Assembly (NCBI GenBank): GCA_977020255.1
Contig: CDROCS010000849.1
Location: forward strand, 248,001-312,000
DNA from: Obrimoposthia wandeli
Lineage: Eukaryota
Direction: 5' to 3'
DNA: 64,000 nucleotides
How positions within the stretch are numbered: position 1 is the first letter of the stretch; each line of letters starts with the position of its first letter. A program made the translations under genes and the position numbers. Positions 54,923 through 57,900 of the stretch are shown piece after piece. A model generated the notes under the pieces. The model saw only the letters and a program-made list of their open reading frames with translations, had not been told where the DNA came from and did no database searches.

Positions 54923-57900
54923 ATGAATAACGTAAGTTTTTATTTAAAATTTTTATATTTATTTTTTAGTGCAATATGAACAAGAATCTATGCTTTGATG
55001 ATCAACATCACGAGTGTGTAATACAAATGAAGGCCTATTTCAAGAAAATCTTCAACCGAAAGACATATTTTATCTGTCCGCAATGCGAATCAGTCCAGGA
55101 CATCGGTTGGACGACGTTCGTGAATGAGCACGAGCGTCATCTCGGATACTTCCAAGCTCGTGGAAAATCAGCGATATTCCGGAATTCTCCACAGAACAGC
55201 ATGAGCTATAGATCAGTTCAAGCTCCAGTGGTAATAGCTCCAATGGTAGTTGCTGATCAAGTTCAAGCTCCAGTGGTAGTAGCTCCTGTAGTAGTAGCTC
55301 CAGTGGTAGTAGCTGATTCAGTTCAAACTTCAGTTCAAGATCCTGTAGTAGCTGCTGCTGATCCTGTCAATGTTTCTGCTGCTGCTCCTGTCAATGTTCC
55401 TGCTGATGATGATCCTGTCAAAGTTCCTGCTGCTCCTCGAAAACGGATTATGCCCCCGTCAAGTATGTTAAGCGCGATACCATAAACTAGTGGTGCATCT
55501 GCGGCTAAGAGTGCTAGGTTAGGGGTTTTAAGAGAAAAGAGAGGACTAAGAGGGTCTTATGTGACATTATCGTTAGATTTGACTAGCGATAATGTTTTTG
55601 AATTAAATGTGCCGCAACACTTTATAGAATCCTTAAAAGTAACAGTTGGAGAATTTGCTACTTGTAAAGTGCAATTCGGTATCAAGGTGGAGTTTGAGAA
55701 TGAGAGTGGTGTGAAACAATGGAATGTTTCTAACAAGGCCACTACATTCACTCCCGTGTTAATTGATAGGGGTATAGAGTGTCTCAATGCTAAGATTGAG
55801 AAGTATTCTCAGAATGCCAGTAATTGGCAACTCAAACGCATCCTGGAGATAAATTTTATTATCATTAAGACCACGGAAATTAATTATCTCCAAGGAAAAG
55901 CATATATTGCTACGCCAAATGAACTTCACAATTCGGTTGTGAATGTTCAGAATACAGGTGTTTTGTGTTTTATCTATTTGTGTTTAGCATCCTTTCTATT
56001 CTGAAGTACGATATTATCTCTCAGCATAGGTATAGAGTCTCACAATATGATGCATATTTAGGAGATTTGATATACTCTTTAAACGATATGCCTATGAGAT
56101 TAGCTGATATTCCTCGTTTCGAAAGAGAGAATTCATCCTTATCAATAAATGTATTCACTTACAATCACATCAATATCATTCCTTCTCCGGATCAGGATAT
56201 TTTCAAGAATCCTTTTATTGATATATTATATCGAACCACCAATCCTGACGGCAATCCAGTTAATCTGATTCTGTTAGAAGGAGGAGAGAAATATCACTAC
56301 GTTGCAGTTCCAAATCTTAATAGGCTTCTAAACTATAATAACAAAGAAGAAGGTTCTACACGAATTCGATGTATATGGTGTCATAAATGTCTTCATGGAT
56401 TTAGACGGGCAATAAGTTTTGAGAAGCATAAAGAAGCATATGGAACATAATACACTATACCAGATGCCGGAGGACAAATATATTCAATTCACAGATTTTT
56501 CAAAAACGATTTCTCCACCATTTGTTGTTTACGGGGATTTTGAATCAGTTCTCCCACCCCATGGCATTCATCATCAAATTCATCTCCCGATTGCAGCCGG
56601 TATGTTAATGTCTCCAATTGCTGCAACAGGATACACTCAAGATTACTCGCTTTTCACTGGTGAAACTTGTGTTGTTGATTTTCTTTCCAATCTGGAAATG
56701 CTGGTAAATACAGTTGTTTTGCCTTGGTATAAGAGACATGCAGTGGAAGTAATGCAAGCACTTACGCCTGAGCAAATAGCTAGTTTTAAATCAGCTACTA
56801 GTTGTTACCTCTGTAATAAGACATGCATTAAAAAGGTACGAGACCATGATCATATGACGGGTAAGTACCTTGGAGCTGCTCACAGTAAGTGTAATTTATC
56901 TAGACGAGTGAATCGTACTCTCCCAGTGGTGTTTCATAACCTGAGAGGGTATGATCTCCATCACATTCTCAAACATGCGCTGAGCAACTTTTCTGACTGG
57001 AATGTATCTGTTATACCTCAACCAACAGAGAAATTCCAAGCAATGATAGTGCGTATTGGAGGAGTTTGCATTCGATTCATCGATTCATTGCAGTGTTTGA
57101 ATAGTAGTCTTGAAAAACTCGTGGAAAACTTAGTTTCCATTCCATTGACACATTCTGTTTTTCAACCTCATCTTGTGAATGGTAAAGGGATATTTCCATA
57201 CGATATGGCGGTATCAGAGAGTGCTCTCCGATCAATAACAAGCCTTCCACCAAAATGGGACGAGAAGATCAAAAGTGAACAATATGAGTTGGCGGAGAAA
57301 GTTTGGCACGAGAGTGGGTGTAAATCCCTTTGGGACTATATGTTGGTATATCTCAAAATGGATGTATATCTACTTGCAGATGTGTTTACAACATTTCGAG
57401 AAAAGGCTATCGCCGATGATGGATTGGAACCACTCAATTTCTTCTCTATCCCAGGTTAGATATTATTATTATTATTTTTCATTATTTAATTTTACATAGG
57501 TTTAACATTTGCAAGCGCTTTCAAGTCATTACTGGGTACTGAGTCAACCGCAGAAAGACCGAGGGTTCCAGGCGGATCTACTGTGGAATTGATTCAAGAT
57601 CCTGAGATGCATCGACTGTTTGAAGAAGGTATTCGTGGAGGAATGACCTTTGTAAACGAACATAAGATTACTAACTCTGATGGTGATACTATTTTGTATA
57701 TTGATGTTAACAATCTTTATGGATGGGCTATGTCCCAATTTTTACCGGTTGGAGATTTTACCTGGGTAACTGACCGATTGGAATTAGAAGTAATAATTAA
57801 TGAACTCTCATATAAGGATCTAAGCTGTAGTGATTATGCTCATTTAATGGAAGTAGATATAAGTATTCCGAATGAATTGCATGATAAACTTGACGATCTT

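Follow-up and report, generated by a model that had tools for sequence, protein, structure and literature searches.

Can the core genes of an animal Maverick be interrupted by spliceosomal introns? Animal Mavericks have been described as intronless in their core genes, whereas at the locus described here up to three short candidate GT-AG introns interrupt such genes, one of them of 45 nt and situated between the exonuclease and palm motifs of the pPolB gene. In the accessible part of PMC8097293, intact vertebrate Mavericks are described as having intronless ORFs with no introns observed, in stated agreement with Kapitonov and Jurka 2006, and in the accessible part of bioRxiv 2022.07.12.499685 the core genes of nematode Mavericks are likewise intronless, with introns only in cargo genes. 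A large survey even used a prokaryotic/virus gene caller, the reason given in the available text of PMC10120064 being that endogenous viruses lack introns. Here we analyse a 64-kb window, that is, the whole stretch of flatworm DNA under study, which is eukaryotic DNA of ~29% G+C, and conclude that the 45-nt segment at 57455-57499 is probably a real spliceosomal intron.

The segment lies in a gene cluster at 49141-58950 (~49.1-59.0 kb), tightly packed on one strand, that has Maverick/Polinton gene content and comprises the following features.

49141..49788, plus strand: A32/FtsK-like packaging ATPase, open (PF04665, E 1.4e-6).
49788..50168, plus strand: small basic ORF with no Pfam match, presumably PZ-like, by position only.
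50277..51305, plus strand: rve integrase with a C-terminal chromodomain, open (PF00665, E 8.7e-12; PF00385, E 0.001).
51302..52330, plus strand: probable minor capsid protein, putative by position and size, with no Pfam match.
52327..52644, plus strand: small ORF of fitting position and size with no Pfam match, which we take to be PW/core-protein-like by position.
52676..53897, plus strand: major capsid protein of the double jelly-roll type, its gene divided between two frames near 53235-53269.
53932..53971, plus strand: candidate protease intron, 40 nt, GTAAGC..TTTTAG, 82% A/T, phase 2, after ATG AA (53927-53931).
53972..54314, plus strand: candidate second exon of an adenain-like cysteine protease (PF00770, E 0.0048, below cut-off).
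54332..54787, plus strand: accessory ORF of 151 aa lying between the protease and pPolB genes; a D.E motif stands at its start.
54932..54969, plus strand: candidate start-proximal pPolB intron, 38 nt, GTAAGT..TTTTTTAG, 92% A/T, phase 0, three codons past the ATG at 54923.
54970..57454, plus strand: pPolB upstream of the focal segment (PF03175, E 4.5e-10; PF02945, E 0.0017, below cut-off).
57455..57499, plus strand: focal segment, 45 nt (divisible by three), phase 1, inside the pPolB gene.
57500..58950, plus strand: pPolB downstream of the focal segment, open to its stop (PF03175, E 9.9e-15).
57532..57573, plus strand: second insert relative to homologues, ~14 codons, open, 44% A/T, G+C-rich.

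Animal Mavericks/Polintons (eupolintoviruses, alpha-adintoviruses) have the same PF03175-type pPolB, rve integrase, A32-like ATPase, adenain-like protease, double jelly-roll capsid and tightly packed ORFs, and the available text of PMC8097293 gives Xenopus tropicalis Mavericks the same-strand layout seen here. The N-terminal piece of the capsid protein matches DJR-like / F54H12.2-like clusters with a score of 0.97. The accessory ORF at 54332-54787 matches unnamed arthropod clusters at 0.97 and PF13017 at 0.86, the latter a weak lead towards a Maelstrom-like protein; the product may be a DEDD-type nuclease. Within pPolB, 54970-57454 encodes an N-terminal Cys/His region, a low-complexity linker, an endonuclease VII-like domain and the exonuclease motifs, and the palm/thumb motifs checked in 57500-58950 (YIDVNNLYG, K..N..GK, GDTDS, KFKDE, RPK.Y and AKG) are all present. 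The N-terminal linker holds short coding tandem repeats at 55211-55434 (15-, 24- and 27-nt units, Ala/Pro/Val-rich).

Compared with intact Mavericks, this copy is decayed. In the pPolB gene the frame is broken by a stop at 55483-55485 and shifted near 55980 and again near 56430; the two shifts were considered as introns and rejected because they are indels under ~12 nt. No TIRs were found between 42-49.2 kb and 58.9-64 kb, nor any convincing end motifs or 6-bp target-site duplication at the element ends; we therefore file the locus as a decayed Maverick-type gene cluster rather than an intact Maverick. Degraded Maverick loci without TIRs number 2,166 in the accessible part of PMC8097293. Judged by the pPolB stop, the two frameshifts, the split capsid gene and the failure to find TIRs, this copy is a dead fossil, and since pPolB is broken elsewhere, removing the focal segment does not make it functional.

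The surroundings of the cluster contain further sequence features. A 17-nt motif, TCAAATGATGTAATACT, stands in identical plus-strand copies at 48905-48921, upstream of the ATPase-to-protease block, and at 54802-54818, upstream of the pPolB ATG and of a TATA-like AGTATAAA at 54882, each copy being preceded by AAGGG(T). TCAAATGATGT occurs only twice in the window, at those two motifs, and a looser GGGTGATGTGAT is seen at about 59115. The 17-nt motif, which we take to be CRE/ATF-like, is a candidate promoter element. Additionally, tandem arrays flank the element at 47651-48285, 48335-48874, 59253-59683 and 59996-60192 (186, 209, 194 and 32 nt) and are not inverted copies of one another.

The borders of the focal segment read CCAG/GTTAGA...TTTTACATAG/GT, with GT..AG ends, and coincide to the nucleotide with an intron proposed earlier in a sequence-only reading, in which the segment was described as almost pure A/T with two in-frame stops and same-frame flanks. 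Specifically, its A/T content is 89%, compared with 60% over 300 nt of flank on each side and a maximum of 78% for any other 45-mer across the pPolB span (n=3844); the in-frame stops lie at 57457-59 and 57487-89, and the frame is the same on both flanks. That reading had ranked the donor as less canonical, yet GTTAGA is not weak: with CAG/GTAAGT, the familiar U2-type donor consensus, CAG/GTTAGA agrees at 7/9 positions. At the 3' end, a T-rich tract with 12 T in the 20 nt preceding AG leads to a terminal TAG. A 5-nt AGGTT repeat spans both junctions, and an ATT microsatellite lies within the segment. In-frame stops in an intron of length divisible by three fit selection for NMD visibility, a fit qualified by the many stops that A/T-rich DNA holds anyway. 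An intron of self-splicing or structured type (group I/II, tRNA/IRE1) was rejected, as no stable RNA fold was found at the segment (z -0.46 alone, -0.40 with flanks) and group I/II introns are longer than 45 nt. The word TTTAAT lies 12-17 nt from the 3' end; such words are frequent in A/T-rich DNA.

The dimensions and the donor can be set beside those of flatworm genes. In the available text of PMC13594981, short introns of Schmidtea, another flatworm than the host, peak at 45-85 bp; the 45 nt of the focal segment fall at the lower edge of this peak, and the 38- and 40-nt companions are shorter. The window itself supplies one host gene.

40390-41433, minus strand: exon of a 7TM receptor, 5-HT7-like serotonin receptor, with best named matches in Dugesia (57%) and Schmidtea (53%), then other flatworms.

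This exon breaks off near 40560 at CAG/GTATGT, the only host donor seen, which resembles the focal donor; a tblastn search found no later exon of the receptor in the window. By the receptor matches the host is a flatworm, probably a triclad, though not the Dugesia or Schmidtea species matched. Elsewhere in the window, transposase-like fragments at 1821-2195 (minus), 8516-8806 (minus) and 23704-24036 (plus) presumably derive from mariner-type and hAT-type transposases, which they resemble, and a dispersed repeat family of 88-94% identity occurs in both orientations at 198-1046, 9826-10156 and 61600-62279.

Among the best 120 of 4548 pPolB matches, 119/119 homologues that cover the site have an exact 15-residue gap opposite 57455-57499, located at a conserved Pro-Gly junction, which supports the earlier placement of an intron between exonuclease and palm. 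When this set was merged with a second search, giving 213 proteins, the ~15 extra residues that would speak for a coding segment were sought and found in 0/163 spanning homologues; the spacing at the site is identical in 151/163, and the other 12 reflect BLAST gap placement and on inspection hold no insert. Removal of the segment restores the conserved pPolB frame with no residues gained or lost. Over 844 compared pPolB residues, just two runs are missing from most homologues, namely 57455-57499 and a 14-residue G+C-rich run downstream. The pPolB consensus cited earlier in support of the intron does match the junction, but its ellipsis conceals this 14-codon insert at ~57532-57573, where the spacing is 29 in the window versus 11-19 in 163 homologues. 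The insert contains a 36-nt GT..AG stretch (57536-57571) without a pyrimidine tract, and a second intron is unlikely there, given 44% A/T, 14% T and a length of 36 nt. Because homologues differ by several residues at this place, 57532-57573 is most likely a coding loop insertion. Besides this insert, the sequence-only reading had passed over the AGGTT repeat, three other breaks in pPolB and two further intron-like segments.

No relative was seen to share the focal segment. An intron-like overhang at the junction is seen in 0/213 homologues, and no homologue stops within query residues 300-460, a weak test of splitting in which exon-1-only proteins would rank below the best 120 of 4548. Some homologues begin at Mets just past the junction, and equally many begin at other Mets. 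As no relative with the focal intron was seen, the intron would be younger or lineage-specific. Two scans for relatives with DNA in bacterial/archaeal genome contigs gave 106 and 28 pattern matches, 0 of them confirmed; a phage collection returned no match; and exact look-up of 10 window ORFs found 0/10. Neither a sister copy nor a transcript turned up in these scans and look-ups. A solved-structure search gave a weak, uninformative match to the polymerase of 1xhx (E 0.009).

The chance expectation was simulated by dropping random host 45-mers into pPolB, with thresholds chosen after the focal segment had been seen. Under these conditions, GT..AG borders in some register arose in 767/198,069 trials (0.39%), and the stricter combination of GT..AG, YAG and 10 or more T among the final 20 nt in 63 of 198,069 (0.03%). 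Because AGGTT is repeated at both junctions, a 5-nt target-site duplication was also simulated, yielding GT..AG in 3306/197,477 trials (1.7%) and the combination with YAG and a T-rich tract in 236/197,477 (0.12%). Codon-shuffled pPolB controls contained an intron-like segment in 4/200 shuffles. A post-hoc scan of the plus strand of the element picked out three intron-like segments and no more: 53932-53971, 54932-54969 and 57455-57499. Since the same scan returns one on the minus strand of the element, while the host flank yields 13 and 10 per 47 kb, a count of three alone is not significant, and the weight of the two companion segments comes from their position, not from their number.

The position of the protease companion is informative. 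From 2764 relatives at E up to 0.001, 150 were listed, of which 147 were aligned and 3 of at least 300 aa excluded. In 79/147 of these homologues (best 150 of 2764), a Met stands exactly six residues before the anchor, and the window reaches this position only from the ATG at 53927 across 53932-53971. Four of the 11 best matches (45-54% identity), P0335, P0337, P0340 and P0345, are without the usual Met; each has a run of 80-100% F/L/I/Y/N ending in Phe/Asn and followed by Ser, and the window protease, read in frame through its acceptor, gives the same pattern of such a run and then Ser. Ser occupies the acceptor position in 0/79 Met-start homologues and in 18/46 homologues with longer N-termini. 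The run and the Ser of the four proteases would correspond to a T-rich tract, YAG and the base after it in translated form, a hint of an intron-bearing lineage. In a tree of 48 rows (the window and 47 of the 50 best matches, those of at least 200 aa being excluded), the intron-like label requires 4 changes, a value equally low in 69/500 shuffles, and the window stands apart from the four; as reconstructed, the tree neither shows nor excludes a single origin of the label.

For the start-proximal segment of pPolB, an in-frame ATG at 54976 allows translation to begin without 54932-54969, which makes this intron optional and its support moderate. Among 79 long pPolB homologues, 4 start 3-6 residues ahead of the codon that directly follows the segment and 7 start ~18-22 residues further in. 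The predicted starts of these seven (P0005, P0014, P0017, P0019, P0025, P0041 and P0079) thus lie ~18-22 residues inside the N-terminal Cys/His region, and such late starts could reflect a missed first exon there too. The adenovirus E2B pol/pTP transcripts have a tiny first coding exon and long-range alternative splicing; there, too, a protein-primed polymerase has its first few codons on a separate exon, as proposed for 54923-54931, whereas the candidates here are host-sized mini-introns, one of them deep in the catalytic region. By eye, the 38-, 40- and 45-nt segments appear unrelated save for A/T richness.

The nearest precedents are introners inside dinoflagellate Maverick-like (eupolintoviral) elements, as far as described in the accessible parts of bioRxiv 2025.03.18.643946 and PMC12166617. 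Like the segments here, these are intron-forming insertions in Maverick-like proviruses, some in coding regions, but according to the available text of PMC12166617 they belong to multicopy transposon families of protists and were mostly acquired post-integration; the segments here look mutually unrelated, measure 38-45 nt and have an animal as host, with the focal one single-copy in the window. Group I introns in cryptophyte PLVs form another near precedent in the available part of PMC12220804. The recent Daphnia-type repair gains at AG/GT proto-splice sites in the accessible text of PMC3443670 share with the focal segment a short AGGT-containing direct repeat at both ends and the possibility of precise removal, although here it is a mobile element of virus-like character that would carry the gain. 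The literature searched, mostly openly accessible, lists no account of spliceosomal introns in the core genes of animal Mavericks, though the phenomenon may have been noticed before. Term searches of the available text of bioRxiv 2023.08.22.554363, PMC11296320, PMC8502044, PMC11244446, PMC10175614 and bioRxiv 2026.07.28.741278 likewise returned nothing on introns in Maverick core genes.

Because the copy is decayed, a late insertion is possible, and this is the main rival to the intron, although we consider it unlikely: DSB repair or slippage would have put ~40 nt of A/T filler at AGGTT with a 5-nt duplication after the element had died, so that GT..AG is a by-product that was never spliced. 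The AGGTT repeat on both sides would make GT..AG automatic for any duplication-flanked insertion, as the accessible part of PMC3443670 indicates, and lifts its simulated rate to 1.7%; the ATT microsatellite, at least four other lesions in the copy and the lack of the segment in every relative seen point the same way. Yet the rate falls to 0.12% when YAG and a T-rich tract are also demanded, even before frame preservation is required, and the other lesions of pPolB are a stop and indels under ~12 nt rather than anything of this size. The element moreover holds two more canonical GTAAG candidate introns, one of them where homologues require it, and repeats of at least 5 bp also flank 26% of conserved Drosophila introns in the accessible text of PMC3443670.

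A host transposon is a still weaker contender. A small intron-generating element of the introner/MITE kind may have jumped into pPolB, as in the dinoflagellate Maverick-like elements, where ~25% of viral introners fall within coding sequence in the available part of PMC12166617, and the AGGTT repeat does resemble a target site. However, no second copy of the segment exists in the window, the best ungapped match being 29/45 against a shuffle mean of 30.0 within the 64 kb of host covered; the sequence folds into no stable structure (z -0.46); and the three segments look unrelated apart from their A/T richness, all of which leaves this origin quite improbable. Least credible of all is that the segment is no intron, its stops being read through under a variant code, its 15 residues belonging to the protein, or the assembly being at fault. 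While the length is divisible by three and the adjoining site tolerates a 14-residue coding insert, readthrough would have to act on two different stops, other ORFs of the element terminate at TAA and overlap the ATG that follows, no homologue has residues at 57455-57499, and a sequencing error would not be expected to yield clean splice signals.

Taken together, the segment is likely to be a spliceosomal intron of U2 type and minimal length, carried by the pPolB gene of a flatworm Maverick/Polinton-type element. In this model, Pol II would transcribe the genes of the element in the nucleus of the host, U1 would pair with CAG/GTTAGA, and the T-rich tract and TAG would serve as acceptor, presumably by intron definition as with short planarian introns. 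Exact removal of the 45 nt would rejoin the conserved Pro-Gly between the exonuclease and palm regions, while unspliced RNA would stop at 57457 and then probably be destroyed by NMD. What the analysis shows directly is the borders, the stops, the exact gap in homologues, the low chance rates and the companion segments. Of the inferred parts of this model, splicing itself is the one in which we have good confidence; that the intron was gained while the family was still active, before this copy died, we favour by a narrower measure. The intron was probably gained by a duplication-flanked insertion, such as repair filler, at an AG/GT proto-splice site, although the route is not proven because, in the accessible part of PMC3443670, repeats of such size also flank old introns. 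The gain would have occurred in a lineage already dependent on splicing through the start-proximal introns of protease and pPolB. More broadly, we regard as evenly balanced the proposal of an animal Maverick lineage whose active element carried 38-45-nt host-style introns in core replication and maturation genes, with the protease intron common to relatives at ~50% identity and intron gain continuing even in the catalytic region of the polymerase.

If the introns are real, intron-bearing families are at present cut apart or dismissed as degraded, and intact elements would be undercounted in hosts with tiny introns. The introns would also constitute genetic evidence that the polymerase and the protease are expressed through nuclear Pol II and the spliceosome, and they would offer a compact system in which to test how introns are gained at AG/GT sites and if host range is limited by the smallest intron that a host can splice. 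Should the intron-bearing lineage hold true, its elements would need the host spliceosome, which might gate them or confine them to certain hosts, and current intron-blind gene callers would score such elements as dead.
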